Shown: piece after piece, positions 13,760 to 47,841 of the stretch
How positions within the stretch are numbered: position 1 is the stretch's first letter
How the letters are laid out: each line of letters begins with the position of its first letter
From: an uncultured Methanosarcinales archaeon
Lineage (GTDB): Archaea; Nanobdellota; Nanobdellia; Woesearchaeales; GW2011-AR9
Assembly: GCA_964344285.1 (NCBI GenBank)
Contig: CAYFMM010000004.1
Location: 109,526-173,525 of the forward strand
Reading direction: 5' to 3'
Length of the DNA stretch: 64,000 nucleotides
Notes under the pieces: model-generated
The model's input: only the letters and a program-made list of their open reading frames with translations
Told to the model about the DNA's origin: nothing
Database searches by the model: none
Position numbers and translations under genes: made by a program

Positions 13760-14862
13760 ACAAGAGCCCAAATAACCTTATTTTTGTAACCTTTTTTTAC
13801 AATTTCATTTTCTTGAAATAACCTGTTAAGGTGAGGTGTAACGCCATTCATTGTAAACAAAAGCTCGTTTGCAAAATCTCTAGTAGTTAATTCTCTATAT
13901 TCTAAAAGAGAAAAGATTTTTTGTTCAATCAAAATAGGGTTCCTAGTTCTAAATATTCTAGATTTTGTTTCGATCATCTTTTGTAAATTAAATTTCTTAG
14001 TTGGATGTTTTAATGGAATTAATCTTTTGAAAAAAGGAAGACTTTTAGATCTGACGTTTAATGATACTTTATCTTTTCCTTTTGAGGAAAATATTGAAAT
14101 TTTACCTGTCTCAATATTTAACGTGCACAACAATTCTTTAACTTGTTTCATTAAACTAAGAGAATGGATTGTTAAAACAGCCCCTTTTGAAACTGAGCCA
14201 TCATCATCAAACAAAGCGGCAATAAATGCAGCTTTACACTCAACTGTTGAAGTAAATATTTTTTGAGGGATTCTATTTGGATGTGTAATTTGGAAATCAA
14301 AAACACCTTGAATTATATCTGTGATTACCTTTGGAAACTCAATAATGTATGTTGAATGTGTTTTTCTTTCTCTACTTTCAAATTCTCCAAACATATTCAA
14401 TGAATTGCTAAAATTTTTTCTTAATAGTGCTTCTGAATTAGCATAATATGGGGTATGGTGCCCAGATTGACAACCATCGGCAATAAGATGTCCTATTATA
14501 GAATATAACTTGGGAGTTTCTAGTAATGGTAGTTTTGGTAGATTAACTGGAGTTCCTGCTCTTACTCTAATCTTAATAATCTGTTTTTCAAGCTTTAACT
14601 TTTCTTCTTTACTGATATAAGTGATAATTTTTTTTAATAATTTATTTGGTATATATTGGACATATTCTTTGCCATTTTTCTTGAATTTGGCGCAATGGTA
14701 TTTTCTAAAGCCCTTTGGCTCTTCTTCAATTTCTAAACAAAATTTTCTTCTTGAGCCGAATCTTTTGTACAATCTTTCAAGTAACTTAATTCTAAATTCA
14801 TCCTCAATAAGTACATAAATACTATCTGGAAAATCCCAAATATGCCACTCTCGCAAAGCCAT
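13756..14862 (-). CDS. Free-standing double-motif LAGLIDADG endonuclease with C-terminal HTH-like segment
   Basis: IIGHLIADG and FIAALFDDDG motifs; no intein splicing residues at the ends. Confidence 0.85.
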   Translation of the reverse strand: MALREWHIWDFPDSIYVLIEDEFRIKLLERLYKRFGSRRKFCLEIEEEPKGFRKYHCAKFKKNGKEYVQYIPNKLLKKIITYISKEEKLKLEKQIIKIRVRAGTPVNLPKLPLLETPKLYSIIGHLIADGCQSGHHTPYYANSEALLRKNFSNSLNMFGEFESRERKTHSTYIIEFPKVITDIIQGVFDFQITHPNRIPQKIFTSTVECKAAFIAALFDDDGSVSKGAVLTIHSLSLMKQVKELLCTLNIETGKISIFSSKGKDKVSLNVRSKSLPFFKRLIPLKHPTKKFNLQKMIETKSRIFRTRNPILIEQKIFSLLEYRELTTRDFANELLFTMNGVTPHLNRLFQENEIVKKGYKNKVIWALV

Positions 14863-26540: not shown

Positions 26541-26553
26541 AATAAGAATAAAA

Positions 26554-26901
26554 TTATTCTTGTTTAGGTTCTTCTTCAGCTTGCTCTTCACTTGATTCTT
26601 CTTGAGCAGTCTCCTGTGCAACTGGTTCTTGTGCTTCTTCTTCTTGAGCAGGTTCTTCACTTGCTTCTTCAGAACTCTCTTGAGGAACATCGTCTCTTTC
26701 GCTACCCTTAGCTAAAAGTTGAACATTCTCTGCTTTTAATCCACGTTCTCCTTCTGCAGGTTCGAATGAAACTCTGTCATTATCACGTAAGAATACGCCC
26801 TTAGGCACTGCTGTAAAGTGTACGAAATAATCCTTGCCATCTTCGCCACTAATAAATCCAAATCCTTTTTTTCTGTTAAAAAACTTTACGTCTCCTTCCA
26901 T
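26554..26901 (-). CDS. csp: Cold-shock domain protein with acidic tail
   Basis: GDVKFFNRKKGFGFI (RNP1), DYFVHFTAV (RNP2), then an E/Q/A-rich tail. Confidence 0.95.
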   Translation of the reverse strand: MEGDVKFFNRKKGFGFISGEDGKDYFVHFTAVPKGVFLRDNDRVSFEPAEGERGLKAENVQLLAKGSERDDVPQESSEEASEEPAQEEEAQEPVAQETAQEESSEEQAEEEPKQE

Positions 26902-27174
26902 TTTTACTCTTTTCCTCCAACTCGATGCTCTCTTTCAAGCATCCGTCGTTCTTTTTTAATCCTTTAACCGCTTTCCTTATATAAACTTTACTTTTGATAA
27001 GTGGAAATTTACCTTTAGATTTAAGTATAAAAATTTATAAGTATGCTCATAAATAACAGTCAGGAGACATATCTCAATTGGTGTAATGTGCAATGACGGA
27101 TGTGAACACCCGATGATCCCTTCTGGGAAATGATTAACGGAAGTAACTTCCTAGCACACACAGACTTTTACAAA

Positions 27175-27717: not shown

Positions 27718-28052
27718 ACAGAGGCAAACTGTGCTTGCTGAACTTTATTATGGCCTAAATTAACTGTAAGGGGAATACTAATATCTTTTTCTTTATCTTC
27801 AAATTTCATTACAAATGTAATGTAAACATGGTTTGGTTTGTATGCAACTCTCATCGCAGCGTGTTTTAGCTCTGCAAGTTTTTTAATAGAAATATTCAGA
27901 TTCTCAGATGCATTTAGTATCTCAACTCCTGTAATTAAATCATCATGGTCTACATCTATGATAAAATCTCCTACGTCCATTGAATGCTTTACCTTCTTTC
28001 CTGTAGATAAAGTAAGAATATCTTCCTCTCGATTATAATTTATTTCTGCCAT
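27714..28052 (-). CDS. DUF2283-like protein (putative antitoxin)
   Basis: INYNREEDILTL..IIDVD..ITGVEILNAS. Confidence 0.8.
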   Translation of the reverse strand: MAEINYNREEDILTLSTGKKVKHSMDVGDFIIDVDHDDLITGVEILNASENLNISIKKLAELKHAAMRVAYKPNHVYITFVMKFEDKEKDISIPLTVNLGHNKVQQAQFASV

Positions 28053-28342
28053 GTTCTTTGTTTATTCCAGCCTGTAACGATATATAAAACTTTCCTGCTA
28101 ATAATTGCAATAATGATTAACTCATATTTATTACTTAATTTGAACCATAACTTGTATTTCTCTTCATCATTTCTTGCAATTTGCTTTTCAGCCCTTAGCA
28201 ATGCTTTTCCTTTGATTGCTTTAACTACCATTCCTTGATTAATCGGTCTTTTTTGTATTCTCTCAAAGAAATGTTGCTTAAACTTAATTTCCTTTATATC
28301 TATCTGGCTTAAAATGTTTTTGATTCTCTTCAAATCATCCAT
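28040..28342 (-). CDS. DUF4258-like RelE-fold protein (putative toxin)
   Basis: FKQHFFERIQKR..YIVTGW; overlaps the DUF2283 gene. Confidence 0.7.
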   Translation of the reverse strand: MDDLKRIKNILSQIDIKEIKFKQHFFERIQKRPINQGMVVKAIKGKALLRAEKQIARNDEEKYKLWFKLSNKYELIIIAIISRKVLYIVTGWNKQRTWQK

Positions 28343-28441
28343 ATCTAATCTTAACGAAAGGAGAATAAAACTCTATGCTATTTACCAAATATTTGCTATA
28401 TTTCCATAATCTTTTTAATTGGCTCTTACTAGTAAGAATCC

Positions 28442-34117: not shown

Positions 34118-34588
34118 ATGAAAAAAGCCTTGGCATTGATAGATGGAACTAGAAATAGTGCTCTTGCACTCTATTCCATGCGTTATCGCTTTGATGTTAT
34201 TGCAATTCATTTCTTTGAAAAACAAGTTGATAGAAAATACTTTACACAACTAGCCCAAACAATGGGGGCAGTAAAATTATACCTTGTTCCTCTAAAGCAA
34301 CCATTTTCTTTTCAAACAAACCTCAAAAAAATAGAAAAAATTGCACAACAAGAAACAGCAGATGTAATTATTACAGGAAAACATGTTACGGAAATGGATA
34401 GCACAACACTACAAGCAATACAACAAGAAGACTCATCAACACAACTACAAATTATTCGTGCAATAATGCCTAGAACTGAAAAAGAGCTCAAAAACCTTGA
34501 AAAAGAATCTGGCTTTGCAAAAATAAAACCAACACAACCTCAAAGCTTAAATAGCGAGCAGGTAATTGAATTAGAAGATACAAGGTGA
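34118..34588 (+). CDS. Degenerate adenine-nucleotide alpha-hydrolase (ThiI-catalytic-like) protein
   Basis: KALALIDGTRNSALA lies where ThiI-type enzymes have LLSGGxDS; DVIITGK; TATA box 30 nt upstream. Confidence 0.5.
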   Translation: MKKALALIDGTRNSALALYSMRYRFDVIAIHFFEKQVDRKYFTQLAQTMGAVKLYLVPLKQPFSFQTNLKKIEKIAQQETADVIITGKHVTEMDSTTLQAIQQEDSSTQLQIIRAIMPRTEKELKNLEKESGFAKIKPTQPQSLNSEQVIELEDTR

Positions 34589-34691
34589 ATTTTTACTTTT
34601 TCTACTTTCAGCTTAAAGAAATTTTATAAAGAAGTTAGTTTTTCTCTTACTCACAAAAGGCAAAAACTACAAAGCCTTGTTGGAGGTAGCA

Positions 34692-36109
34692 ATGTTAAGG
34701 CTGTACAACACATTAACAAGAAAAAAAGAACCATTTAAACCGTTGAAAAAAGATTCCGTGGGCTTATATACATGCGGGCCAAACAAAGTCTTGTAAGAGA
34801 TTTTGGGCATGCCGTCTACAATTACGCACACATTGGAAATCTTAGAACTTATATTTTTGAGGATATTCTCAAAAGAACACTTCTACTAAATAAATTTCCA
34901 GTAAAACACGTGATGAACATCACCGATGTTGGTCATTTAACCTCAGATGCTGACTCTGGTGAAGATAAAATGCTTAAAGGAGCAAAACGTGAGAAAAAAA
35001 CAGTCTGGGAAATTGCAGAATTTTATACAGATGCGTTCAAACAAGACCTACGAAAACTAAATATCATTAAACCAACGCATTGGTGTAAAGCAACAGATTA
35101 CATTCGTGAACAAGTTGCAATGATTGAGCAATTAGAAAAAAAAGGTTTTACCTACGCTGCTGGTGGCAATGTTTACTTTGACACATCAAAATTAGATGAT
35201 TATGGCAAACTAGCAAGGCTCGATAGAACAAAAGAGGGAAAAGCAAGAGTTGAAAAAGACAAAAACAAAAAAAACCCACACGACTTTGTGCTTTGGTTTA
35301 CAAAATCAAAATTTCAAGATCAAGAAATGAAATGGCAATCTCCATTTGGAGTCGGCTATCCAGGATGGCATTTAGAATGTTCTGCCATGGCAACAAAATT
35401 TCTCGGTGAACAGTTTGACATTCACTGTGGGGGGATAGATCACATTCCAGTACATCACACTAATGAAATTGCACAATCTGAGGCAACAATCGGAAAAAAA
35501 CCATGGGTAAATATCTGGATGCATGGAGAATTTTTAGTTATTGGTAAAGGCGAGAAGATGGCAAAGTCAGGAAATAATTTTTTGACAATCAAAGTTTTAG
35601 AAGAAAATGATTTTTCCGCACTCGATTATAGATACTTTTGCCTTGGAACTCATTATCGAAATCCACTTATGTTTAGTTGGGACGCACTAAAAGGTGCACA
35701 AAACGCTCGTAAAAAACTACACGATAAAATCCTTGAAATCCAAGATAAACAAGGTCCAAATCACAAAGAAACAGTAAACATTTACGCCCGTCGCTTTGCA
35801 AACGAAATTAACGATGACTTAAACACATCAAAAGCTCTTGCAACACTCTGGGAAATGTTAAAAGATGATAATTTATCCAATAAAGACAAATACTTACTGG
35901 CTTTAGAATTCGACAAAGTTCTTGGACTAGACCTTGGTAACATAAAACCATTAAAAGTCCCTGCAGCTGTAATTAAGCTAGCACAAGAACGTGACGTTGC
36001 TAGAAAAAACAAAGATTGGAAAAAATCAGATGAGCTACGCGATAAAATCGCTACTAAAGGATTTATTGTTGAAGATGGAAAGGATGGATTTGAGATAAAA
36101 GGAAAATGA
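34692..36109 (+). CDS. cysS: Cysteinyl-tRNA synthetase, interrupted: exon 1 34692-34782, exon 2 34812-36109
   Basis: SD GGAGG, then [24 protein letters not shown]. Resumes in another frame with [52 protein letters not shown]. Confidence 0.95.
34783..34811 (+). other. Putative 29-nt bulge-helix-bulge intron in cysS mRNA
   Basis: Bulges AAA (34781-83) and TGC (34810-12); central helix GGCC/GGCA; stem CAAAGTCTT/GAGATTTTG with GTAA loop. Excision restores codon ACC (Thr). Confidence 0.82.
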
Positions 36110-36943: not shown

Positions 36944-37582
36944 ATGAAAAAGATTTTTTTACCCTTACTTTTACTCTCAGTACTTTTTATTGCAGCATGC
37001 ACAACACAACAAGAAGTGCAAATGCAAGAGCAACACATGGAAGAATCAATGGAAGTCATGGAAGAAAAGATAGATGCAATGCAAGAAAAAAATGAAGAAG
37101 AAATGCAAGAAACAACAGAAAAACCAACATCTTCAGATAATAACCTTCCTCTTTGGATGACAGCGCAGCTCACAGACGTTAATACTCAAGAGACATTTAT
37201 AATAGAGGAAATTGCACAAGAAAAACCAGTTCTACTTGAAAGCTTTGCAGTATGGTGTCCTAAATGTACATCACAACAAAAAGAAACAAAAGCACTTCAC
37301 GAAGAAATCGGTGACACTGTACATTCCATTGCACTTAACACTGATCCAAACGAGGACGCAGCAAAAGTAATTGAACATACTCAGCGTTTTGGCTTTGATT
37401 GGACCTATGCAATCTCGCCTAAAGAAGTAACACAAAACCTTATTGATGAATTTGGGGTTGGTATTGTAAACGCACCGGCTGTTCCCATGGTTTTAATTTG
37501 CTCACCAACGCAGTCAAGAATGCTTAGTCGTGGTGTAAAGTCAGTAGATAAACTCAAAGCAGAAATCAAGGCAGGGTGTTAA
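36944..37582 (+). CDS. Thioredoxin-like (TlpA-type) lipoprotein
   Basis: Lipobox IAAC, FAVWCPKC, APAVP. Confidence 0.85.
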   Translation: MKKIFLPLLLLSVLFIAACTTQQEVQMQEQHMEESMEVMEEKIDAMQEKNEEEMQETTEKPTSSDNNLPLWMTAQLTDVNTQETFIIEEIAQEKPVLLESFAVWCPKCTSQQKETKALHEEIGDTVHSIALNTDPNEDAAKVIEHTQRFGFDWTYAISPKEVTQNLIDEFGVGIVNAPAVPMVLICSPTQSRMLSRGVKSVDKLKAEIKAGC

Positions 37583-37583
37583 A

Positions 37584-38261
37584 ATGGTAAGCATGCTTGT
37601 TAATTTTTGGTTATCCTTTCTTGCAGGACTCTTTGCTCCACTGGGCGCAGTCTGTGTTTTACCGTTGTATCCTGGGTTTCTTTCATATTTAGCAAGCAAA
37701 ACATCTACAGATAGTTCTAAGAAAACAATTATCATGTATGGTGTAATTGTTGTACTTGGCGTTCTCTCCTCTATGCTTTTAATTGGGCTAATCTTTTCAA
37801 CAATTCTTAAAGCATCACTCACAAAAGCAATTGGCATTATCTCACCGATTGCCTTTGGCATTTTAGCAATCATTAGTCTACTCTTAATCTTTAATGTAGA
37901 CATCACTCGTTTTTTACCAAAACTAAACGCACCAGTTCTTAAAAATCCTTACTTTAGTGCGTATGTCTTTGGATTTTTATTTGGTGCAATTGTACTTCCT
38001 TGCAATCCAGCATCACTCGCAGTTTTATTTGCAGTAAGCACATCAACAGTTAGCTTCATTACAAATTTCATCAACTTTATGCTTTTTGGCTTAGGGATGG
38101 GGCTACCTCTCTTGATTTTAGCATTCATCTCTGCAGCTAAAAGTCAACAAGTGATTGGCTTTTTAACAAAACAAAAAAGATTAATTAATCTAATTGCAGG
38201 AATCATAATGCTTGGTATTTCAATATATTACCTTGTATTTGTATTTCGCATCTTTGGGTGA
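37584..38261 (+). CDS. ccdA: CcdA/DsbD transmembrane electron-transfer protein
   Basis: AVCVLPLYPGFLSY and LPCN; six TM helices. Confidence 0.88.
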   Translation: MVSMLVNFWLSFLAGLFAPLGAVCVLPLYPGFLSYLASKTSTDSSKKTIIMYGVIVVLGVLSSMLLIGLIFSTILKASLTKAIGIISPIAFGILAIISLLLIFNVDITRFLPKLNAPVLKNPYFSAYVFGFLFGAIVLPCNPASLAVLFAVSTSTVSFITNFINFMLFGLGMGLPLLILAFISAAKSQQVIGFLTKQKRLINLIAGIIMLGISIYYLVFVFRIFG

Positions 38262-39346
38262 AAAAAATGAAAAAAAAGAATTATTTATTATTTACAACAA
38301 TTGCAATTGTTTTGCTTTTTGTAGTCAGTTGCCAAACACCACAACATACTGATGATGCTACACAAGACAATCCACCTACAACAGAATCTGACACACCAAC
38401 TGATTTTGAGCAAAACCCAGGTGCAACACCTCTTTTAGATGGAGAGATTCAAACAACTAGCGATGGCACAAAATATATTGTAAATCCAAATGAGATTCTC
38501 TCTGGAGGTCCTCCAAAAGGAGGCATTGGTTTTGATCGAGGAATTCCTGCTTTGGCAGAAAAAAACATTGACTTTGTGACGGTACAAGTTGCAGATAAGT
38601 GGATACAAGACCAAGAATTAGTACTTGCATTACAATATGATGGCGTAAAAAGAGTATATCCTCTGCAAATTTTAGTCTTTCATGAAATTGTTAACGATGA
38701 AATTAATGGTCTACCAATTTTAATTACCTATTGCCCACTCTGCGGTTCAGGCATTGCCTATGAACGCACAATTGAACTAAATGGGCAAAAAGTTGCAACA
38801 CGCTTTGGAACGTCAGGCAAACTCTATAACTCTAACTTAGTAATGTATGATGAATCAACAGACACTTATTGGCAACAAATTGATGGTAAAGCAATTGTTG
38901 GCAAGCTTACAGGTCAAGAACTCAACAAAATATCTATTGACACTGTTGCTTGGCGCGATTGGAAAAAAGCTCATCCGGAATCTGAAGTGTTATCACAGAA
39001 AACAGGTATGAATCGCCCATATGGAAATGACCCTTACCCAGGATACTATGAAAACTCATTTCTCTTTTTTCCGGTAGACAATGAAGATAATTCAATTCAC
39101 CCTAAAACAGTAATCTTTGGCACTGAAGTTGGCGGTGTGTACAAAGCATATCGAGAGGAAGATTTGCTTGAAACTCCTATCATTAAAGATGTGGTCAATG
39201 ACGTTAATATTGTTGTGGAGCGAGGAGATGATGGTGTTGTAAAAATTATAAATCAGCAGACAGGGGAAGAAATTGTCAAAGAACGCGACTTTTGGTTCGC
39301 TTGGTATGCATTTCATCCTAATACGCAATTATATGGTGCACAATGA
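38258..39346 (+). CDS. DUF3179-family lipoprotein
   Basis: Lipobox VVSC, SGGPPK..GIPA, ITYCPLCGS, SGKLYNSNLVMYD..T.TYW.Q, FWFAWYAFHP. Confidence 0.88.
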   Translation: MKKMKKKNYLLFTTIAIVLLFVVSCQTPQHTDDATQDNPPTTESDTPTDFEQNPGATPLLDGEIQTTSDGTKYIVNPNEILSGGPPKGGIGFDRGIPALAEKNIDFVTVQVADKWIQDQELVLALQYDGVKRVYPLQILVFHEIVNDEINGLPILITYCPLCGSGIAYERTIELNGQKVATRFGTSGKLYNSNLVMYDESTDTYWQQIDGKAIVGKLTGQELNKISIDTVAWRDWKKAHPESEVLSQKTGMNRPYGNDPYPGYYENSFLFFPVDNEDNSIHPKTVIFGTEVGGVYKAYREEDLLETPIIKDVVNDVNIVVERGDDGVVKIINQQTGEEIVKERDFWFAWYAFHPNTQLYGAQ

Positions 39347-39531
39347 AATATCCTTTGCATACCAAGTGTCACGAACGTAACGAGGTGGAGTGACTTTGAC
39401 GCGTGGTACGCTTTCCACCCTAATACACAACTCTATCAACAAACTAATCAACAATAAGTGCCACGTGTCCCGAATGATAATGAGGATATGCGTGGTATGC
39501 ATTTCACCCTAACACTAAAATATATGGCTGA
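39299..39531 (+). repeat. Three diverged copies of the DUF3179 3' end (AWYAFHPNT.[LI]Y) separated by hairpins
   Basis: Copies start at 39299, 39401 and 39490; differences are mostly synonymous. Confidence 0.85.
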
Positions 39532-39575
39532 GCCCTTTCAAAAGACTTAAATAATCTCTTGTACTATCTGTGAAT

Positions 39576-39878
39576 ATGTTAACTAAAGAAAAAATTATAC
39601 ACAAAATTGAACAAAATAAAGATAAAATAAAATCTTTTGGTGTAACTAAATTAATTTTGTTTGGCTCTTATGTTCACGGGACACAAAAAGAAAATAGTGA
39701 TATTGATTTATTAGTAGAATTTGACGATGGGAGGGGTTTATTTAATGATTATGTTCATCTACTTCATTTGTTGGAAGATTTATTCAAGAAAAAAATTGAT
39801 TTAGGTGAAGAGAAATTATTGAGAGAAGAATTAAAGCCTTATATCTTAGGGGGAGAAAAAATTGAAGCGAAGATTTGA
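39576..39878 (+). CDS. Minimal nucleotidyltransferase (MNT antitoxin)
   Basis: LFGSYVHG..SDIDLLVEF; TATA box 30 nt upstream of this ATG. Confidence 0.92.
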   Translation: MLTKEKIIHKIEQNKDKIKSFGVTKLILFGSYVHGTQKENSDIDLLVEFDDGRGLFNDYVHLLHLLEDLFKKKIDLGEEKLLREELKPYILGGEKIEAKI

Positions 39879-40209
39879 TTTATACCTTAAAGATGTTCTT
39901 AACGCCATAGAAAATGTTAAAGAGTACATTGGAGATCTTGATGTTGAAGATGTTTTAAAGGACCGTTTAAGAACCGACGCTATTCTACGTAATCTTGAGA
40001 TTATAGGTGAAGCTGTATCGCAACTACCAAAAGAAATCAAAGAAAAATATAAAGAAATCCCTTGGAGGGATATTAAGGATTTTAGAAACGTAGTTGCACA
40101 CCGCTATTGGAAGATTAATTTGGCTAGAATAGTTGATATTATTGAAAACAAACTGGATTCTCTTAAACAGAAAGTAGAGAACATTCTTATTAAAGAAAAA
40201 GATGCCTAA
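39862..40209 (+). CDS. HEPN (DUF86) ribonuclease toxin
   Basis: DAILRNLEIIGEA, IPWRDIKDFRNVVAHRY (RX4H). Confidence 0.93.
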   Translation: MKRRFDLYLKDVLNAIENVKEYIGDLDVEDVLKDRLRTDAILRNLEIIGEAVSQLPKEIKEKYKEIPWRDIKDFRNVVAHRYWKINLARIVDIIENKLDSLKQKVENILIKEKDA

Positions 40210-40831
40210 ACAAAAAATCAATAAAAATCATTTTAGAGTTGCAATCTTTGGTTCAGCAAGAACTAAACGCAATGACCCAGAATACAAAAAAATTGAAAAA
40301 TTAGCACAACTGATTGCAGAAGAAAACATTGATGTTGTAACAGGAGGAGGGCCAGGTCTAATGGATGCTGCAAGTCGTGGTCATCACAAAGGTAGAAAAA
40401 AAGGTAATCATGCTCACTCACTAGGTCTTACAATTAAACTTCCTCACGAGCAACATGATGGATATCATTTAGATGTCAAAGAAGACTTTGCAAAATTTTC
40501 AGGAAGATTAGATAAATTTATGCAACTCTCAAATGTGGTGGTTGTAGCTCCCGGTGGAATTGGCACAATTTTAGAATTTTTCTACACTTGGCAACTTATT
40601 CAAGTCAAACAAACCTGTGAAATCCCAATTATTATGGTGGGGTCAATGTGGAAAGGACTAATTGACTGGGTAAAAAAACAACCCTTAAGAAAAAAACTTC
40701 TCAACAAAGAAGATTTAAAGACAATTTACTTTACAAACACAAACGCACAAGCAATGAAAATTATTATGGAAGCAAAAAAGAGCTTTGAATCTGGTGAGCA
40801 TGTTTGCAGGAATATTGAAAAGTACAAGTAA
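40202..40831 (+). CDS. LOG-family protein (YgdH/PpnN-like)
   Basis: FGSAR, TGGGPGLM, PGGIGTILE. Confidence 0.9.
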   Translation: MPKQKINKNHFRVAIFGSARTKRNDPEYKKIEKLAQLIAEENIDVVTGGGPGLMDAASRGHHKGRKKGNHAHSLGLTIKLPHEQHDGYHLDVKEDFAKFSGRLDKFMQLSNVVVVAPGGIGTILEFFYTWQLIQVKQTCEIPIIMVGSMWKGLIDWVKKQPLRKKLLNKEDLKTIYFTNTNAQAMKIIMEAKKSFESGEHVCRNIEKYK

Positions 40832-41027
40832 GAATTTTTAAAAGAGAGTAATTTTGGTTATGTCACGTCGGTACATTTATGCTTAAGTGAAACTATTCTC
40901 TTTTTCTTATCTTGTCTTTAGCCTGGCTACCTATTGCCTCCCAGGTGCAAGAAGTACAATATTTTTGATAATATACTGCCCTTTTAGTGTTAACACAAAT
41001 TAAGAATTAAAAAAAAATAAGAAAAAT

Positions 41028-41585
41028 TTATCTTTTCTTTTTCTTTGTAGCCTTTTTAGCAGGTTTCTTTTTTGTTGTTACTCTCTTCTTCGCTGCCTTC
41101 TTTTTCACTACTTTTTTCTTTGTAGCCGCCTTTTTCTTTGCAGGAGCTTTCTTTTTGGTAACTTTCTTCTTGCTTGTAGCCTTCTTTGCTGGTTTCTTTT
41201 TTGCTGCTGCTTTTTTCTTCACAGGTTTTTTTGCAACCTTCTTAACTGCTTTCTTTTTAGCGGGAGCCTTTTTCTTCGCTGTTGCTTTCTTCTTTGTAGC
41301 CACTTTTTTTGCAGTCTTTTTCACAACAACTTTTTTTGTAGGCTTAGCAACCTTTTTAGTGCCAACTGCCTCTTGTAATGCTTTAGGGTCAAATCCTACT
41401 AAAATTTTATCTTTAACCTCAATTACTGGAACGCCCATCTGTCCTGACTTTTCAATCATTGCATCTCGCGCCTTTACATCAACAGAAACATCATACTCCT
41501 TAAACGCAACATTGTTCTTTTTCAAAAACTCCTTTGTTTTAGCACACCATGGGCATGTTGGTGTAGTATATATTTTAATTGCCAT
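41028..41585 (-). CDS. Glutaredoxin (NrdH/YruB-like, CPWC) fused to a histone-H1-like Lys/Ala tail
   Basis: IYTTPTCPWC..SGQMGVPVI..VGFD, then about 110 aa of KKPAKK-type repeats. Confidence 0.88.
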   Translation of the reverse strand: MAIKIYTTPTCPWCAKTKEFLKKNNVAFKEYDVSVDVKARDAMIEKSGQMGVPVIEVKDKILVGFDPKALQEAVGTKKVAKPTKKVVVKKTAKKVATKKKATAKKKAPAKKKAVKKVAKKPVKKKAAAKKKPAKKATSKKKVTKKKAPAKKKAATKKKVVKKKAAKKRVTTKKKPAKKATKKKKR

Positions 41586-41743
41586 TTCTAATCACCTTCT
41601 TTTTTAATTAAACTATAATCACAATATTATTTGATTTATCTTAACCATACTTTCTAAATTTATAACTCTTTTGTTTTTCTTTGAACCCTACAAACAAAAA
41701 TTTATTAACTCCAACTTGTACTCTTTACAAAAAGAGGTTATCC

Positions 41744-43201
41744 ATGACAAAAAACTTAACTAACAAAAAGAAAAATTCTCTATCTCGTAATTCTAAAACT
41801 ACAAAAAAACCAAAACAATATGACGTAATAGTTATCGGTTCAGGTGGCGGCACAAAAATTGCATCACCTGCCTATCAACTAGGAAAAAAAGTAGCAATCA
41901 TTGAAGAAGCAAAATTAGGTGGGACTTGTCTTAACCGAGGTTGTATTCCTTCTAAAATGCTAATCCATCCAGCAAATGTTGCAACAATTATCAAAGATGC
42001 AAAAAAATTTAACATCAATGCAACATTTAGTTCAGCAGACATACAAAAACTTCTCAAACGAATTAACAAAGAGACAGATGGTGATTCTAAAAGTATTGAA
42101 ACATGGTATAAATCCCGTAAAAACTTTGGATATTACCATGGACACGCAGAATTTATTTCAGATAAAATAATCAAAGTAAATAATCAACTTCTCACTGCAA
42201 AAAAAATCTTTATTGCTACTGGTGCAAGACCTTTTGTTCCTCCAATCCCAGGACTAAAAGAGACTCCATTTATGACAAGCACACAAGCTCTAAGAAGTAG
42301 AACACTTCCTAAAAAGCTCCTTGTAATCGGAGGCGGATATATTGCGTGTGAGCTAGGCTACGCTTACTCAGCTTTGGGCTCAGAAGTTCACTGGTTGGTA
42401 CGAGACAAAGCTCTCCTTCGAAGAGAAGACGCTCAAGTTAGTCAAACTTTTACCAAAATCTTTGCTAAAAACCATAAAGTTCACTTTAACACAAATACTA
42501 CAAACGTATCTTACAACAAAAAAACAAAACAATTCACATTAACTCTAGAAACAACAAAGGGCAATCAAAAAATAAAGAAAAGACTAGTTGGTGATGCTCT
42601 TTTAGTTGCAACTGGAGTAAAACCAAATTCTGAGCTGCTTGGATTAGAAAACACTTCTATTAAAACTAATAAACGCGGTTTTATTAAAGCAAATTCTTAT
42701 CTTCAAACAACAGTAAAAGATGTCTATGCTCTTGGTGATGTTGTTGGCAATTACATGTTTCGCCATTCTGTAAACTTTGAAGGAGAATATCTTTTTAACG
42801 AACATTACTATAAAAAAGGAAAAATTACACCCATCAAATATCCTCCAATTCCTCATGCGGTTTTTACACACCCCGAAATTGCTGGTGTTGGTCTAACTGA
42901 AGAACAACTTCAAGAGAAAAAAATTCCTTATGTGGTTGGATTTAATCCTTACAAAAAAAGTGCGATGGGATCAGCTAGGCTTAGCAAAGATGAATTTGTC
43001 AAATTATTATTCCATAAAAAAACAAGAAAACTTCTTGGTGCACATATCTTGGGTGAAGAAGCGTCTAACATGGTTCATCTTTTAATTTATGCAATAACCA
43101 ATGGTGCAACAGCTGATAGCTTACTTAACATGATTTATATTCATCCAGCCCTGCCAGAAATTGTACGAAATGCGGTAAGAAATGCAATGGAAGAATTTTA
43201 A
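41744..43201 (+). CDS. Flavoprotein disulfide reductase (dihydrolipoamide dehydrogenase / mycothione reductase family)
   Basis: GSGGG, GGTCLNRGCIPSK, IGGGYIACE, YALGD, HPALPE; SD GAGGT. Confidence 0.9.
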   Translation: MTKNLTNKKKNSLSRNSKTTKKPKQYDVIVIGSGGGTKIASPAYQLGKKVAIIEEAKLGGTCLNRGCIPSKMLIHPANVATIIKDAKKFNINATFSSADIQKLLKRINKETDGDSKSIETWYKSRKNFGYYHGHAEFISDKIIKVNNQLLTAKKIFIATGARPFVPPIPGLKETPFMTSTQALRSRTLPKKLLVIGGGYIACELGYAYSALGSEVHWLVRDKALLRREDAQVSQTFTKIFAKNHKVHFNTNTTNVSYNKKTKQFTLTLETTKGNQKIKKRLVGDALLVATGVKPNSELLGLENTSIKTNKRGFIKANSYLQTTVKDVYALGDVVGNYMFRHSVNFEGEYLFNEHYYKKGKITPIKYPPIPHAVFTHPEIAGVGLTEEQLQEKKIPYVVGFNPYKKSAMGSARLSKDEFVKLLFHKKTRKLLGAHILGEEASNMVHLLIYAITNGATADSLLNMIYIHPALPEIVRNAVRNAMEEF

Positions 43202-43498
43202 AGGTCATTTTTCTTAACAATTGTTGTAATTATTTGCATTAGGTATTCTAATGGGTCTCCCTCAATTTCACGTAGTGAAGTTTTTCTGTGTCCTTCTTCT
43301 GGTCTAGCAAATAATCTTTTGGGTGCCATCTGTAAACTCAACACTACTGCCATAACTATCTCCGCTTGGACATGTGCCCCTACAATAAACGTATTCAACC
43401 GAAACTCCAGCATATTCTCTAGTCCCATCTAATAACCCTTGATATAATTCATCATTACCAGGACAACTTTCACATACTAAAACTTGTAATTTACTCAT
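43198..43498 (-). pseudogene. Probable frameshifted Cys-motif protein (thioredoxin-like ferredoxin?)
   Basis: VLVCESC..YCRGTC ORF stops at 43304. Removing one A from the run at 43317-43320 joins it to the 43198 frame, giving 99 aa. Confidence 0.45.
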
Positions 43499-43552
43499 AA
43501 AACAAAAACTAATCTGTTCCATTAAAAACTTTATGACAAAAAATAAAGAAAA

Positions 43553-43786
43553 TTAATAACTATAAGAACACCAACATTGCCCTTGATTGATCTCTTCATT
43601 AAATTCACACAATGCTTCTCCTTTTGGAATATTTGGATTTTCATGATAGCAATTTACGTTCTTACAATCCTTGTCTTCCAAACACAAACTGCCCTCTTCT
43701 GCGACATAATCCTTGTTAAACAAGCATCCACTTAGTAAAAATAAACTTGTAATTAAAACAACTCCAATCAGTAATTTAGTTTTCAT
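43553..43786 (-). CDS. Small Cys-rich lipoprotein
   Basis: MKTKLLIGVVLITSLFLLSGC lipobox, then six more Cys residues. Confidence 0.7.
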   Translation of the reverse strand: MKTKLLIGVVLITSLFLLSGCLFNKDYVAEEGSLCLEDKDCKNVNCYHENPNIPKGEALCEFNEEINQGQCWCSYSY

Positions 43787-43787
43787 T

Positions 43788-44027
43788 TTACAAATTCTCC
43801 TCAATATATGCAATGATATCTGCAGACTCACCGATCCACTTGCCATCGATATTAATGACTGGCACAGTTCCAACACCGCTCTTCTCTGCAATCTCTTTTC
43901 GTTGTACATCTTCCCTATCGTGGGAAACATTCACTTTTTCATACTCAAGTCCCTTTGCATCTAAAACACTTCTCACTCTTGCACAAAAGGGACACGTTTC
44001 AAATTGATATAATATTATCGTTGCCAT
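43788..44027 (-). CDS. Glutaredoxin-like protein
   Basis: LYQFETCPFC..GTVPVI..WIGESADII. Confidence 0.92.
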   Translation of the reverse strand: MATIILYQFETCPFCARVRSVLDAKGLEYEKVNVSHDREDVQRKEIAEKSGVGTVPVINIDGKWIGESADIIAYIEENL

Positions 44028-44099
44028 AAAATTACAAAAGATTAAGTCTATATAAGGATTATGAAAATGTTTTTAAATTGAAAATACTTCATAATTATT

Positions 44100-44366
44100 A
44101 TGACATCACTTGAAAAAATTAAAAATGAGATTACAAAAATACAACAACGAAACGAGCGTGTGGAATTGGATAAAGCATGGGAAACAAGTGTCACACGAAA
44201 AATACTTGTTGCAGTTTTAACGTATTTTGTAGTGGTGCTCTTTTTTTATGGAGCGGGTTTACCAAAACCGTTTTTAAACTCCCTTGTGCCTACAACAGGG
44301 TTCATACTTTCTACGCTCTCTTTGCCTTTTTTTAAACGAATCTGGGAAAAATACAAGAAAAAATAA
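44100..44366 (+). CDS. Small membrane protein, unknown function
   Basis: RVELDKAWETS..; two hydrophobic segments. Confidence 0.65.
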   Translation: MTSLEKIKNEITKIQQRNERVELDKAWETSVTRKILVAVLTYFVVVLFFYGAGLPKPFLNSLVPTTGFILSTLSLPFFKRIWEKYKKK

Positions 44367-44377
44367 AAAAACTAAAC

Positions 44378-44764
44378 TTAGTTTTCTTTAACTGCTACTG
44401 CTCCAGGACCACTGAAATACACACTAACAAGCCCGGTGATTGCTAAGATGTGGAACAACAAGTTAATCATGCCCATCGGTTGACTTAAGTTTGGAATAAC
44501 CATCATTACCGTTGCAACAACCATAATTACAATTAGTGGCCAAACAGTGTATTTTGTTTTCCATCCAGCAAGTAATGCTGCACCAAAGACAATTTCTGCA
44601 AGAAGCACAATCCACGTAAGACCCGCTCCAATCATGCCTGCAAGCATATGTCCGCCTCCAAGCATTCCAAATAACTTATCGAGGCCTGGGATTACAAATA
44701 GTAAACCTAGTCCTAAACGTAATACAGATGGTGCATACGCCCGACAATCACATTTTTCTTTCAT
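44378..44764 (-). CDS. DoxX-family membrane protein
   Basis: LRLGLGLLF..G.DK, EIVFGAALLAG, GPGAVAV. Confidence 0.88.
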   Translation of the reverse strand: MKEKCDCRAYAPSVLRLGLGLLFVIPGLDKLFGMLGGGHMLAGMIGAGLTWIVLLAEIVFGAALLAGWKTKYTVWPLIVIMVVATVMMVIPNLSQPMGMINLLFHILAITGLVSVYFSGPGAVAVKEN

Positions 44765-44934
44765 TTTCTTTTTCCTCCTTAAACTAAATGATTTTGTAGT
44801 GAAAAGCACCTTGTGCAAACCACTCTAACTAACAAAACACTTCCCAACAACTAAATATGTATCTTATTATCATTCAAACAAAATTTTGATAAACAAGAAT
44901 AAATTTTATATAAGCTCAGACAAAAAATAACATT

Positions 44935-45576
44935 ATGGGATACACAGTCATTGCTCCAGTAGGGGATAATTTAGATGCCCTTTTTGTGGGTATGAAGGAA
45001 TTTGCAACAGAACAAGTTTACTTAATTACGCCAAGTAACAACCTACGCAAAGCAAAAAAACTAGAAAAAAAACTTCAAATATTTTCAATTCCAGTAATCA
45101 TCAAAGAAATGAAAGAAGGTCTTATGGAATCTATGTTCTACCAATTTGGTAAGATCTGTGAATCACACTCTGAAGAAGAAATCATTGTAAACGTTGCAAC
45201 AGGAGACAGACTTAGTTCATGTGCAGCACTAAGTGCAGCATTTGCAAACGGTCTAAAAGCATTTGGGATAATGGGTGGTAAACCAATGCTTCTGCCTATC
45301 ATGAAACTTTCGTATTACAATGAGCTTACTGATAGCAAATTTAAAATTCTCACAAATCTTGTAAAAGAAGATTATACTTCACTAAAAGACTTAAGTAAAG
45401 CAACAGGGCTCTCTATCTCTTTACTTTCTTACCATCTTAATGGAACACTTAAATATAAAGGATTGCTTAACCTGCGTTTAGTAGAAGTAAAAGAGCAAAA
45501 CAAAAACTTGCTTGTAAAACTCTCTGATTTGGGTAGTCTATTACTCAAGGGATATATTAGTTGTGAGAAAAAATAA
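44935..45576 (+). CDS. DUF6293/HFX_2341-like regulator (CARF-like Rossmann domain plus wHTH)
   Basis: VIAPVG..VYLIT..IVNVATGDR, then SLKDLSKATGLSISLLSYHL. Confidence 0.7.
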   Translation: MGYTVIAPVGDNLDALFVGMKEFATEQVYLITPSNNLRKAKKLEKKLQIFSIPVIIKEMKEGLMESMFYQFGKICESHSEEEIIVNVATGDRLSSCAALSAAFANGLKAFGIMGGKPMLLPIMKLSYYNELTDSKFKILTNLVKEDYTSLKDLSKATGLSISLLSYHLNGTLKYKGLLNLRLVEVKEQNKNLLVKLSDLGSLLLKGYISCEKK

Positions 45577-45636
45577 GACATAACAAAAATTAAAGACAAC
45601 AAAATCTTTATTAACTCTTATCACTTCCTTTACTCT

Positions 45637-46527
45637 ATGAAAAAGGCAAAGATGTCGTGGGTTGTACTTTTGTTTATGGTTCTTGGGATAATTGGGATCA
45701 TTACTTCTGGTTACTTATTAAAAAGTCACTTAGACACATCAGCAGCAGGTTCTTTTTGTGATATCACAGAAGCTGCATCTTGTTCAATTGTAAACTCAAG
45801 TTCTTTTTCTAAACTCCTTGGTGTGCCAGTGGCAGCCCTAGGGATATTGTGGTTTGTATTCTTCATGGTTTTAATGGCAAGACAATGTTCAATGCACAAA
45901 AACAAAACAGTACAAGAAAAAGTCAATAATGTAAAAGCACTCTTTTTATGGAACCTACTTGGTTTAATTTCGGTAATTTATCTTATTATTGGAGAAATTA
46001 TCATCCGAGCAATCTGCCCACTATGCACAATCGTACATATAATTATCTTACTTGCGCTAGTGTATTCTTTTATTGAATATAAAAAACTTACAACTAAAGA
46101 CAAAAAATACTCTTTAACATTTTTTAAACAATACAAAACTCTCCTCTTCATCTTTGTAATCCTTACAATCGCAACATTCGTTTTTTTCAATCTTCCAGAA
46201 AAAGAAACTCAAGATTATACTGAATTGACGCAATGTGTAACTGACAATGGAGTTAGCATGTATGGTTCTTTTAGGTGTGCTATATGTACAAAAACAAGAG
46301 CAATGCTTGGAGATGCATTTGAAAATATTAACGAGATAGAATGTCATCCACAAGGAGAAAACGCACAAACAGAACTATGTCTTTCAAAAGGAATTGAGGC
46401 GACTCCTACCTGGATTTTAGAACCTAACGGGCCAAATGGAGAAGAACTCAAACGGCATGTTGGCTTTCTTACAGTAGAAGAACTAGCTGATTTTGCAGGT
46501 TGTCAAGACACACTTGATACAAAATAA
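45637..46527 (+). CDS. VKOR fused to a thioredoxin-like domain
   Basis: FCDI..SCSIVNSS..LLGVPVA, ICPLC, then MYGSFRCAIC..IECHP..TPTW. Confidence 0.92.
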   Translation: MKKAKMSWVVLLFMVLGIIGIITSGYLLKSHLDTSAAGSFCDITEAASCSIVNSSSFSKLLGVPVAALGILWFVFFMVLMARQCSMHKNKTVQEKVNNVKALFLWNLLGLISVIYLIIGEIIIRAICPLCTIVHIIILLALVYSFIEYKKLTTKDKKYSLTFFKQYKTLLFIFVILTIATFVFFNLPEKETQDYTELTQCVTDNGVSMYGSFRCAICTKTRAMLGDAFENINEIECHPQGENAQTELCLSKGIEATPTWILEPNGPNGEELKRHVGFLTVEELADFAGCQDTLDTK

Positions 46528-46532
46528 TTACA

Positions 46533-47249
46533 ATGACGTTACCACAAGGATTAACAATCCCTATCTTGGTTGGAGCAGCACTTCTTGACAGTATCAACCC
46601 TTGTGTGTTTGGTGTGTTAATCTTTCTTATTGCCTTTATGACAAAACTCTACAAAAGCCCAGGGAGAATGCTTTTAGCAGGAGCAATTTATACAATTGTT
46701 GTTTATCTTACATACTTTTTTATTGGTGTAGGATTCCTTAAGTTTACGGTCTCTTTTGGCTTCTCTCAGATAGTGTACTGGATTGCAGCAATTATTGCTA
46801 TTATTGCAGGGCTTTTAGAAGTTAAAGACTTCTTTTGGTACGGAAAAGGATTCAGTTTACAAATGGTCCCTGGAGCTGCTCAAAGAATTAAGATGTACAC
46901 ACAACGTCTTAAAAAAATTCATAGCAAAAATCCAAGCCTAAGTTATCTTGCAGCTGGTTTACTTGGGATTTTTGTTGTACTTGTAGAGCTTCCCTGTACT
47001 GGTGCTCCCTATTTGGCTGTTCTTGCAATCCTTGGTCAGGGTAATTACACTGAAGGAATCCCCTTACTCTTGCTTTATAATCTTATTTTTATCCTTCCAT
47101 TATTCATTATCATTGTAGTAGCATACTTTGGAAAGTCCTCTAAAAAACTTGAAGCATGGCGTAAAAAGCACCGTGGTGTGATGCGACTTGCAACTGGATT
47201 ATTCCTTATTGCGCTTGGGGCATTTATGCTTTATTACATTACTGTGTGA
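46533..47249 (+). CDS. CcdA-like transmembrane thiol-disulfide protein
   Basis: DSINPCVF and VELPCTGAPY. Confidence 0.85.
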   Translation: MTLPQGLTIPILVGAALLDSINPCVFGVLIFLIAFMTKLYKSPGRMLLAGAIYTIVVYLTYFFIGVGFLKFTVSFGFSQIVYWIAAIIAIIAGLLEVKDFFWYGKGFSLQMVPGAAQRIKMYTQRLKKIHSKNPSLSYLAAGLLGIFVVLVELPCTGAPYLAVLAILGQGNYTEGIPLLLLYNLIFILPLFIIIVVAYFGKSSKKLEAWRKKHRGVMRLATGLFLIALGAFMLYYITV

Positions 47250-47267
47250 AATAAATTGAGGTACATA

Positions 47268-47402
47268 ATGGCAAAAAAAACAACTAAAAAATCAACAACA
47301 AAAACTAAATTAAAAACAACCGCCAAAAAAGTAGCAAAGAAAACAACTAAAAAACCTGCAAAAAAAGTTATTAAGAATAAGGGCGTCTGTGAATTTTGTT
47401 AA
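47268..47402 (+). CDS. 44-aa Lys/Thr-rich microprotein ending in CEFC (not in ORF track)
   Basis: SD GAGGT; MAKKTTKKSTTKTKLKTTAKKVAKKTTKKPAKKVIKNKGVCEFC*. Confidence 0.75.
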   Translation: MAKKTTKKSTTKTKLKTTAKKVAKKTTKKPAKKVIKNKGVCEFC

Positions 47403-47517
47403 TTTTTTCTTTTCTTCTTCTCTTTTCCAAAACTTTAATAAACATAAAAATCATTCTGCTCGTAAAGAGGTTAGAAAATAGCTATTGTTTAAACCTCTTC
47501 TATAAAGAGGTGGACAA

Positions 47518-47841
47518 ATGGCAAAAAAATCTTCTATTACAAAAGCTCCAGTAAAAAGAGCAAAAAAAACAGCACGAAAAGTAACAAAGAAAATTTCTAA
47601 AAAAGCTAAGCCGTCCTTAGTTGGAAGAGCAACAAAAACAGCACAAAAAGTTTCTAAAGATCTAAAGAAATATCAAGATAAAGCACACAAAGAGTTAGCA
47701 AAAGCAAAAAAGAGCTTTATCAAGCATGAAAAAGAGATAATAGCATATGCAAAAAAAAATCCTGAAAAAGCACTTGCCATTGCAGCAGGTTTAGGTGTAG
47801 CGATGGCATCTGTTGCCGCATTACTCAAAAAGAGAAAATAA
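47518..47841 (+). CDS. Lys-rich protein with ElaB/YqjD (DUF883)-like C-terminus
   Basis: YAKKNPEKALAIAAGLG..LLKKRK tail anchor; SD GAGGTGG. Confidence 0.65.
   Translation: MAKKSSITKAPVKRAKKTARKVTKKISKKAKPSLVGRATKTAQKVSKDLKKYQDKAHKELAKAKKSFIKHEKEIIAYAKKNPEKALAIAAGLGVAMASVAALLKKRK

Follow-up and report, generated by a model that had tools for sequence, protein, structure and literature searches.

A putative bulge-helix-bulge mini-intron in the cysteinyl-tRNA synthetase gene of Woesearchaeota and related archaea

How a complete cysteinyl-tRNA synthetase (CysRS) could be produced from a cysS gene whose reading frame is broken within its active-site motif is the question raised by a 64,000-nucleotide stretch of DNA (the window) from an uncultured Woesearchaeota-like archaeon. 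On the plus strand, to which all features below belong, a Shine-Dalgarno-like GGAGGT, read from the sequence (34682-34687), lies 4 nt 5' of an ATG at 34692, and the frame opened by this ATG reads ...YTCGP before running into a TAA at 34794-34796. The remaining CysRS is found in a different frame, within a long open reading frame (ORF) of 445 aa (34772-36109). Start, stop and frame break had been placed at the same coordinates in a preliminary description of the locus, which proposed that a 29-nt intron is removed from the mRNA. Deletion of positions 34783-34811 (ACAAAGTCTTGTAAGAGATTTTGGGCATG, 29 nt) indeed creates an ACC codon and gives a colinear 462-aa CysRS with the invariant CGPTVY..HIGN restored, as that description had anticipated. 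Accordingly divided, the gene would consist of exon 1 (34692-34782; 30 codons and base 1 of the Thr31 codon), a putative mini-intron holding the in-frame TAA (34783-34811), and exon 2 (34812-36109), which extends from the last 2 bases of the Thr31 codon to the stop codon and encodes KMAKS.

The 462-aa product aligned with solved CysRS structures without a gap over the junction (3sp1, E 5e-128), and its alignment with 122 homologues is likewise gapless there; the N-terminal segment encoded by exon 1 is alignable in 122 of 123 homologues. Scored against the Pfam profile PF01406, the protein gains positions 2-15 through the deletion, and its score rises from 281 to 305 bits. The 445-aa ORF does without these positions and takes its first 14 residues from the insert; the preliminary description had warned that a start at 34772 would lose the first Rossmann strand. 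Every uninterrupted cysS homologue lacks the insert. No CysRS of the spliced form was found in the protein collection, where the best full-identity match was the 445-aa ORF, alone in its cluster, and a 40-aa query taken from the N-terminus of this intron-encoded ORF matched only short pieces of normal CysRS N-termini.

The transcript around the insert was predicted to adopt a complete bulge-helix-bulge (BHB) motif (34774-34815), based on the predicted fold and on pair counts across variants. An outer helix connects 34774-34776(77) with 34812(13)-34815, a central helix connects 34777-34780 with 34806-34809 (G34777.A34809 and three Watson-Crick pairs), and the predicted cuts 34782|34783 and 34811|34812 fall in a 5' bulge AAA (34781-34783) and a 3' bulge UGC (34810-34812), respectively, with an inner intron hairpin (34784-34805) composed of a 9-bp stem, including 2 G.U pairs, and a GUAA loop. 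RNAfold returned the 9-bp stem with its GUAA loop, the AAA bulge, the GCC/GGC central pairs and the outer helix at -15.5 kcal/mol; this single-sequence fold alone is only modestly above chance (z -2.1, with 8 of 200 shuffles folding equally well). In the minimum-energy drawing, G34777 pairs with C34812; the central helix is then 3 bp long, the outer helix 4 bp, and one bulge reads AUG. Cut canonically, this structure would lose 28 nt. This drawing and the one proposed earlier, in which G34777 faces A34809 as a mismatch within a central helix of 4 bp, are equally conserved, the bases concerned being all invariant; the A opposite G34777 is present in all seven interrupted genes described below. 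The proposed fold was recovered in part (the 9-bp stem, GUAA loop, AAA bulge and GCC/GGC pairs), but instead of four regular base pairs the central helix has three Watson-Crick pairs and an invariant G.A. Two further suggestions did not survive comparison. Conservation does not extend to the GNRA loop, which is replaced by UAAUU, UUCG or 6-nt loops in other variants, and a competing CATGC/GCATG helix, suggested as a possible regulator of splicing, was rejected as a switch since its second pair is broken in three of five sequences, with zero covariation; the pairing left there involves bases that the Cys codon and the BHB hold fixed in any case. Loose BHB motifs are frequent in the window (1484 on the plus strand, lengths 12-150), and simple arithmetic from this count puts the chance of a BHB at one given pair of cut sites at about 2e-4, or about 1e-6 if a 9-bp inner stem is included.

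The decisive support for an intron is comparative: the same codon is interrupted in six other genes, with covariation. These inserts, 29 or 31 nt long, occur at the identical codon in six other Woesearchaeota/Nanoarchaeia cysS genes (L002, L010/L014, L011, L012/L015, L023 and L024), all with intact exons and derived from different samples and assemblers (JGI, ENA, NCBI and Logan data), and the same window insert was found again in an independent assembly (L001). The source sites include the sample behind ERR2281801, JGI 3300076214, 3300025317 and 3300009374, and the Hainich groundwater (ERZ1292640). Five sequence types of insert (29 or 31 nt) share one common BHB fold. Exon 1 is kept in frame in all seven interrupted genes and is conserved at the protein level despite a nucleotide identity of about 60%, with CysRS identity ranging from 42 to 70% among five genes compared pairwise (window included). 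Spliced products computed for the six relatives are full length (456-472 aa) in five, the start codon of L024 being not resolved.

Relatives with a 29-nt insert were retrieved with a degenerate pattern anchored in the exons across a fixed gap of 29 N, which is blind to 31-nt variants by design. Six other pattern matches (L007-9, L013 and L016-17) were chance hits in uninterrupted genes, two of them from MAGs labelled bacterial; among five N-terminally short matches examined, L022 was short due to a contig end, and L025 and L026 proved to be uninterrupted, their starts having been mis-called; P0090 was a further case of this kind. The intron hairpin ARAGTCTTGTAAGAGATTTTGG, searched for as an exact string, gave no match in metagenome_contigs or genome_contigs. 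Covariance model R1, built from five sequences, recovered the 31-nt variants L023 and L024, which had been left out of its building (55 and 45 bits), and matched only the flanks of uninterrupted cysS. No second copy of the intron was found in the window, either by the covariance model or by a search within 3 mismatches.

In alignment A3 (seven sequences), which is the source of the best covariation numbers and was fitted to the structure of the model, pairing holds in 91.1% of pair cells, and covariation scores 0.310 vs 0.202 for shuffles; 0 of 500 shuffles were as high in either measure. Five pairs of A3 carry compensatory changes, with 8 cells changed on both sides, most of them contributed by three sequences of this small sample, and sliding the pairing partners, as a control, abolishes the signal. 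Compensatory changes across variants affect four pairs of the inner hairpin, and the exon-intron pair G34778-C34808 is replaced by A-U in L012 and L024. Minimum-energy folding gives the BHB architecture (hBHBh') for the window, L002, L010, L011 and L023. L012 retains the central helix and hairpin in a weak fold (z -0.4; outer-helix pair probability <=0.26), and the minimum-energy fold of L024 departs from the architecture, although its model alignment does fit.

Across the sequences compared, synonymous exon sites are fixed in the way that the predicted BHB demands. The Thr at the junction is encoded by ACC in 7/7 interrupted genes vs 0/7 uninterrupted relatives (Fisher p = 0.0006), and the Pro by CCA in 7/7 vs 3/7. 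Thr31 itself is invariant in 123/123 sequences (5 spliced products and 118 homologues). Because the last intron base varies between A and G, only one register, with cuts at 34782|34783 and 34811|34812 between bulge bases 2 and 3, yields Thr in all seven genes, and a one-base shift of the register leads to Ala or Asn, or to different residues in L010 and L011. Cleavage between the second and third bulge residues is documented for the cbf5 intron (PMC2738675), so that the rule applied in the preliminary description, a cut after the second bulge base, matches both the precedent and the codon.

The window also encodes a tRNA-splicing endonuclease, EndA (203 aa, 13148-13759; Pfam PF02778, 1e-16, and PF01974, 8e-29). 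It contains N-terminal and catalytic domains, aligns over its full length with the homotetrameric EndA of M. jannaschii (1a79, E 1e-36) and also with the catalytic subunit of N. equitans (3iey_A), and looks like the single-subunit homotetramer type. RtcB was not found among the 64 window ORFs of at least 120 aa that were scanned; an RtcB-type ligase is expected in archaea generally. ARAGORN and Rfam detected no tRNA or other known RNA in the 64-kb window, so that it offers no same-genome tRNA intron for comparison.

The following pathway is proposed. In the primary transcript, exon GCGGGCC (Cys-Gly-Pro codons) would base-pair both with the intron's 3' end and with the initial bases of exon 2, and the resulting fold would present two 3-nt bulges flanking a short central helix, with the 9-bp intron hairpin on top. 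EndA would cut at A34782|A34783 and G34811|C34812, and an RtcB-type ligase would then join the exons into an A-CC codon (Thr31) and an mRNA for the 462-aa CysRS. Unspliced mRNA would give a peptide of 34 residues only, because the intron holds an in-frame stop. It is thus very probable, judging from the sequences, that the cysS coding sequence holds a BHB intron that is cut by EndA and joined by RtcB to give full CysRS; this core reading had been put forward at the outset and is strongly supported by the comparative evidence. We infer both the action of EndA and RtcB on the cysS transcript and the role of spliced cysS as the only route of the organism to Cys-tRNA.

The type of intron is out of step with the divergence of the host gene. 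The introns of L010 and L011 are identical at 28/29 positions in genes whose CysRS proteins are only 46% identical, the window and L002 share 28/29 positions at 70% protein identity, and the window and L010 share only about 75% of the intron at 56% protein identity. Over about 30 codons surrounding the site, synonymous-codon identity is elevated solely for the two pairs sharing an intron type (p = 0.013 and 0.037), with p > 0.25 in the remaining eight pairs. This pattern resembles the transfer of an intron together with short exon flanks (co-conversion), by which a 29-nt BHB intron without a protein product of its own would spread in a homing-like manner. Another idea is that a conserved recognition element may couple CysRS synthesis to tRNA-splicing capacity. 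That the mini-intron is a laterally spreading element, or is under sequence-specific selection, is a tentative idea that we consider rather unlikely.

Among other explanations for the insert, its removal from RNA independently of EndA and RtcB, by another hairpin nuclease or as a mobile mini-element with an incidental BHB-like fold, is improbable. Such an agent would be compatible with an intron sequence conserved beyond the needs of the fold (the 28/29 identity between genes 46% and 70% identical) and with a central helix that is not a clean 4 bp; however, all elements of an EndA substrate are conserved (two 3-nt bulges, an exon-intron central helix and flanking helices), the canonical cut sites are the sole working junction, an EndA is encoded in the window, and 29-31 nt lies in the range of 11-175 nt reported for tRNA introns (PMC2738675). 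No self-splicing intron family was matched, Rfam returning nothing for the whole window with the E limit relaxed to 0.1, and a group I or group II intron was rejected on this ground and on that of size (29-31 nt vs a catalytic core of hundreds of nucleotides). One ORF-joining BHB candidate elsewhere in the window (62907-62969), checked among many chance matches of the scan, was also rejected, as it lies within an uninterrupted GlyRS gene.

Translational recoding could in principle restore the frame, through a +1 frameshift or a ribosome hop from GGG (34776-34778) to a repeated GGG (34805-34807). In the window, L002, L010, L011 and L023, a GGG does occur 29 or 31 nt 3' of the exon GGG in the exon-2 frame, and in the first two of these this frame crosses the insert without a stop. 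The repeat is, however, a by-product of the self-complementary GGCC central helix and is missing from L012 and L024, where the exon reads GGA and the intron GGU. Hopping would put His-Ala or His-Thr in place of Pro30-Thr31 (conserved in 117/123 and 123/123 sequences), and read-through after a frameshift would add about 10 residues into the strand-to-HIGN motif. L010 and L011 have a stop in the exon-2 frame, and in L012 the exon-1, exon-2 and third frames all have stops in the insert or its immediate flanks, leaving no translational path across it. Recoding, which accounts for neither the hairpin covariation nor the fixed ACC codon, is therefore very unlikely.

Equally hard to credit is a shorter enzyme started at the internal ATG (34772), with exon 1 being a separate small peptide or untranslated. 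Gene callers do output precisely the 445-aa ORF (P0001 and P0118), but this ORF has the N-terminal defects described above and is not conserved: L010 and L011 stop in that frame within the intron, and in L012 it is closed until the last intron codon, and gene callers place the L012 start 64 residues further downstream (403 aa). In-frame conservation of exon 1 in seven genes also speaks against an internal start. A broken gene (misassembly, sequencing error or a recent pseudogene, with Cys-tRNA supplied by another gene or a host) is extremely unlikely. Split genes are indeed frequent in the reduced genomes of DPANN archaea, such events (325 in 208 complete Nanobdellota genomes) were treated as assembly frameshifts in a 2026 survey, and the inspection covered 64 kb of the genome. 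Against this stand the identical insert in a second assembly, homologous inserts in six other lineages that interrupt the same codon and leave both exons intact and conserved (42-70% identity in the five genes compared), and the protein-level conservation of exon 1 at about 60% nucleotide identity; structure covariation and codon constraint would not be expected in junk.

The preferred reading, an EndA-spliced intron, has a precedent in the cbf5 pre-mRNA of Aeropyrum, Sulfolobales and Desulfurococcales (Crenarchaeota), whose splicing was demonstrated by cDNA and in vitro cleavage (Yokobori 2009, PMC2738675). Both introns are short, of BHB type and located in the coding sequence of an RNA-related housekeeping gene; in both, predicted cuts between bulge residues 2 and 3 give the correct junction, the fold is somewhat relaxed, and distribution in related lineages is patchy, implying gain and loss. 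Watanabe (2002) and Yoshinari (2006) reportedly described the cbf5 intron as well. The present case is nevertheless not a crenarchaeal intron of the cbf5 type: the host gene, cysS, encodes a class I aminoacyl-tRNA synthetase, the organisms are DPANN Woesearchaeota/Nanoarchaeia rather than TACK archaea, the EndA is homotetramer-like rather than the heterotetramer proposed to have enabled mRNA introns, and splicing is deduced here but was shown experimentally for cbf5.

Archaeal tRNA introns, which Marck and Grosjean (2003) are said to have divided into canonical and non-canonical forms (hBHBh', hBH and HBh'), share with the cysS insert an outer helix, a central helix between the 5' exon and the intron 3' end, two 3-nt bulges, an inner helix, the size range (29-31 within 11-175 nt) and the predicted enzymes. 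Differences are that the cysS host is an mRNA without a tRNA body and that an invariant G.A replaces the fourth Watson-Crick pair. In eukaryotes, IRE1/RtcB splicing of HAC1/XBP1 is likewise a protein-only excision of a small frame-changing mRNA intron followed by tRNA-ligase joining; these introns are flanked by stem-loops and their removal alters the frame of the product, as in cysS, whereas the endonuclease is IRE1, the recognized elements are twin 7-nt loops, and splicing is regulated by ER stress. In Haloferax volcanii, a BHB in the HVO_1309 mRNA is cut by the tRNA-splicing endonuclease (Schwarz 2020, PMC7714728; PMC10485636). This is again an mRNA BHB in an archaeon with a non-heteromeric EndA, and mRNA substrates are hence not confined to Crenarchaeota; however, the HVO_1309 intron lies in the 5' UTR and leaves the frame uninterrupted, whereas that of cysS splits the active-site motif, making splicing obligatory for the protein.

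Only two archaeal genes are known whose mRNAs are spliced by the endonuclease, cbf5 within its coding sequence in part of the Crenarchaeota and HVO_1309 within its 5' UTR in Haloferax, and a 2023 review considered that further such introns probably remain to be found (PMC10485636). In the literature searched, no cysS or DPANN mRNA intron was reported, in agreement with the preliminary description, which had cited cbf5 as precedent and knew of no cysS case; Tocchini-Valentini (2011) might list other mRNA BHB candidates. If true, the cysS insert would be only the second intron known within an archaeal coding sequence, the first coding-sequence intron in DPANN and the first in an aminoacyl-tRNA synthetase. 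Gene callers shorten the interrupted cysS to 403-445 aa, and surveys count such genes as frameshifts or pseudogenes, so that estimates of completeness and metabolic inferences for DPANN genomes may be biased; a structure-aware scan of "split genes" could uncover further cases. Homotetrameric EndA is generally portrayed as acting strictly on canonical BHBs (PMC5829648). Because the EndA of the window looks homotetrameric, the cysS intron would challenge the idea that mRNA introns required a relaxed heterotetrameric endonuclease, and in these archaea the production of a tRNA-charging enzyme would hang on a tRNA-maturing enzyme.

The window has a GC content of 34% and encodes archaeal proteins such as FEN1/XPG, RFC, TrmB, Trm5/TYW2, a proteasome-type AAA ATPase and the tRNA-splicing endonuclease EndA. 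The nearest relatives of its cysteinyl-tRNA synthetase (CysRS, about 71%) are proteins labelled Candidatus Woesearchaeota, Nanoarchaeota or 'archaeon GW2011_AR9', which places the host in the Woesearchaeota/Nanoarchaeia group of DPANN archaea. The cysS gene starts at ATG 34692 (+) downstream of GGAGGT, and this frame reads 34 residues before the stop codon TAA at 34794-34796, while the rest of CysRS lies in a different frame within a 445-aa ORF (34772-36109, +). When 34783-34811 (29 nt), proposed in the preliminary description to be a bulge-helix-bulge (BHB) intron, were deleted in silico, a codon ACC and a colinear 462-aa CysRS were obtained, which confirms the interruption and its coordinates. 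Solved CysRS structures (3sp1, E 5e-128) align with the spliced product from its residue 2 onwards, ungapped across the junction, and the product covers positions 2-300 of Pfam PF01406, compared with only 16-300 for the 445-aa ORF.

The identical insert was found in an independent Logan assembly (ERR2281801), and the orthologue on a syntenic JGI contig (L002, 70% protein identity) carries it with one change, A34786 to G, by which an A-U pair becomes G.U. A degenerate search using the exon codons as anchors with a 29-N gap between them detected three more genes: L010 (the same as MAG L014, Cand. Nanoarchaeia), L011, and L012 (the same as MAG L015, Cand. Woesearchaeota). Checking relatives of L012 with short N-termini added two 31-nt inserts in the same codon (L023 and L024). 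In silico splicing of all seven genes gave full-length CysRS (456-472 aa) for six, the start codon of L024 not being resolved. In a neighbour-joining tree of five interrupted genes (42-70% protein identity) and 118 uninterrupted homologues, the window gene and L002 fell among uninterrupted Woesearchaeal genes, and L010, L011 and L012 branched outside them; in the closest uninterrupted relatives, precisely the insert nucleotides are missing. An assembly artefact or a dying gene was ruled out by the identical insert in the second assembly and the same-codon inserts in six other cysS genes. In public annotation, interrupted cysS genes (P0154 for L012, P0186 for L023, P0187 for L024, and P0163 for L022, a locus cut by its contig end) are called 50-64 residues late, at 403-413 aa, and the window's own 445-aa call contains intron-encoded residues; CysRS entries for these lineages are thus systematically truncated in databases.

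The exon codons around the site are fixed at synonymous positions as the BHB requires. The Thr codon is ACC in all seven interrupted genes, its final C pairing with G34776, and ACT or ACA in all seven uninterrupted relatives (p = 0.0006), and the Pro codon is CCA, whose A is the first bulge base, in 7/7 versus 3/7. In the central helix, the pair by which the last base of the Gly codon joins exon to intron is G-C in five genes and A-U in the other two. Thr31 is invariant in 123/123 sequences (five spliced products and 118 homologues), and the last intron base varies (G, G, A, G, G, G, G), so any register that left it in the exon would encode Thr in a single gene and Ala in the other six; Thr is obtained in every gene only with cuts at 34782|34783 and 34811|34812. 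If four positions separate the bulges, these predicted cuts lie between the second and third residues of each bulge, as the EndA substrate rule states, cbf5 included (PMC2738675), and the cut register first proposed is therefore supported by the protein sequence. The fourth central-helix position in this register is an invariant G.A (7/7), which the enzyme may or may not read as a pair.

RNAfold of 34768-34821 (-15.5 kcal/mol, z -2.1) returned the overall architecture previously described: an outer and a short central helix, two 3-nt bulges, one of them AAA, and a 9-bp hairpin closed by a GUAA loop. G34777 was not placed opposite A34809, as the earlier 4-bp central helix with G.A and UGC bulge had it; in the minimum-energy fold its partner is C34812, which shortens the central helix to 3 bp, makes the bulge AUG and brings the outer helix to 4 bp. 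Taken alone, this predicted fold is weak evidence. A loose BHB scan of the window gave 1484 hits for the + strand against 3679 for the - strand, which yields about 2.5 times more chance folds since it is G+T-rich. GC skew is negative in all 4-kb bins (cumulative -2.03), and no skew switch or sign of an origin or terminus was seen within 1-64000. By arithmetic from the loose scan, the chance of a BHB at one given cut-site pair is ~2e-4, or ~1e-6 with a 9-bp inner stem.

The seven inserts represent five sequence types with five loops (GUAA, UAAUU, UUUAGG, GCUAUA and UUCG); a GNRA loop is thus not conserved among them. An ungapped five-sequence alignment had 85-91% of pair cells paired and compensatory changes at five pairs, and the covariance model built from it recovered both 31-nt variants at 55 and 45 bits, matching only the exon flanks of uninterrupted cysS. 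In the seven-sequence alignment, a small sample fitted to the structure of that model, 91.1% of cells were paired and covariation was 0.310 versus 0.202 in shuffled alignments (each reached by 0/500 shuffles), with compensatory changes in eight cells (1/500); when the partner columns were shifted by one to three positions, pairing fell to 27-59%. The competing CATGC/GCATG helix, earlier suggested as a splicing switch, does occur in the window, but three of five sequences disrupt its second pair and it shows no covariation; this regulatory addition was rejected as unsupported.

In the window, ribosome hopping from GGG to GGG across the insert would bring the reading frame back, at the price of turning Pro-Thr into His-Ala; the repeat is simply a product of the self-complementary GGCC helix and is missing from L012 and L024. 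Together with frameshifting through the insert and a conserved internal start for a shorter CysRS, hopping is excluded for the family by the stops in all three frames of L012, inside the insert or its immediate flanks, and by the closed exon-2 frame of L010 and L011.

With regard to splicing machinery, the product of endA (13148-13759) is a tRNA-intron endonuclease of 203 aa in which both Pfam domains are present. Because it aligns over its full length to the homotetrameric M. jannaschii enzyme (1a79, E 1e-36) and does not have the 6-residue insert of the N. equitans catalytic subunit, it is probably a simple alpha4-type enzyme, though a second subunit may be encoded elsewhere in the genome. 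No RtcB was found within the 64-kb window. A 367-aa ORF with a LAGLIDADG_3 homing-endonuclease-like domain (13756-14862, -; E 8e-9) faces endA tail to tail, with a 4-nt overlap at the endA stop codon, and a faint LAGLIDADG_3 ORF lies immediately 3' of the uninterrupted cysS of another Woesearchaeal contig (L026). Each of the two may stand free, be the remnant of an intein or have a link to intron mobility.

Upstream of cysS is a ThiI/ATP-pyrophosphatase-like ORF (34118-34588, +) of 156 aa, which has 203 aa in L002 and 183+ aa in L021, a further cysS locus; the window copy may be truncated. Thiol/disulfide genes are densely clustered downstream (36944-47249): redoxin/AhpC-like (36944, kept beside cysS in L002, L020 and L021), DsbD_TM (37584), DUF3179 (38258), glutaredoxin (41028), pyridine-nucleotide-disulfide oxidoreductase (41681), DoxX (44378), VKOR (45637) and a second DsbD-like gene (46533). 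Three more aminoacyl-tRNA synthetase genes, none apparently interrupted, are a class II Asp/Asn/Lys-type near the window start (94-1167, +), an 842-aa class I Val/Ile/Leu-type (54477-57005, -) and an ORF that is GlyRS-like by its N-terminal sequence and continues past the window end (62802-64000, +). Five stretches lacking any ORF of 120 aa or more (58799-59799, 39347-40201, 27718-28441, 26541-27129 and 47250-47812), 0.56-1.0 kb each, are unusually long for a compact genome. No tRNA or Rfam match was obtained in the whole window, even at E up to 0.1.

In the literature searched, only two archaeal endonuclease-dependent mRNA introns are named, that of crenarchaeal cbf5, inside the coding sequence, and that of HVO_1309 of Haloferax, in the 5' UTR (PMC7714728, PMC10485636, PMC5829648). 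No report of mRNA introns in cysS, DPANN or Woesearchaeota was found there, some older work lying outside it, in agreement with the earlier statement that no cysS case was known. A 2026 survey of 208 complete Nanobdellota genomes took split genes as assembly frameshifts, with BHB introns in mRNA unmentioned.

The reading of the cysS insert as a BHB intron, with predicted splicing, is supported by the seven-gene comparison and by the presence of an endA gene in the window. Conservation of the intron far exceeds that of the gene around it, and intron type does not follow how far the hosts have diverged: 28/29 intron bases are identical between the window and L002 (67% gene nucleotide identity) and between L010 and L011 (61%; protein 46%). 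Synonymous-codon identity near the site (codons 11-41) is raised only in these two pairs, which share intron type (16/24 vs 125/275 elsewhere, p = 0.037; 19/23 vs 98/173, p = 0.013), values that would fail a ten-test correction, and not in the other eight pairs (p > 0.25). This could mean lateral spread of the intron with short exon flanks (co-conversion), or a type- or sequence-specific constraint.
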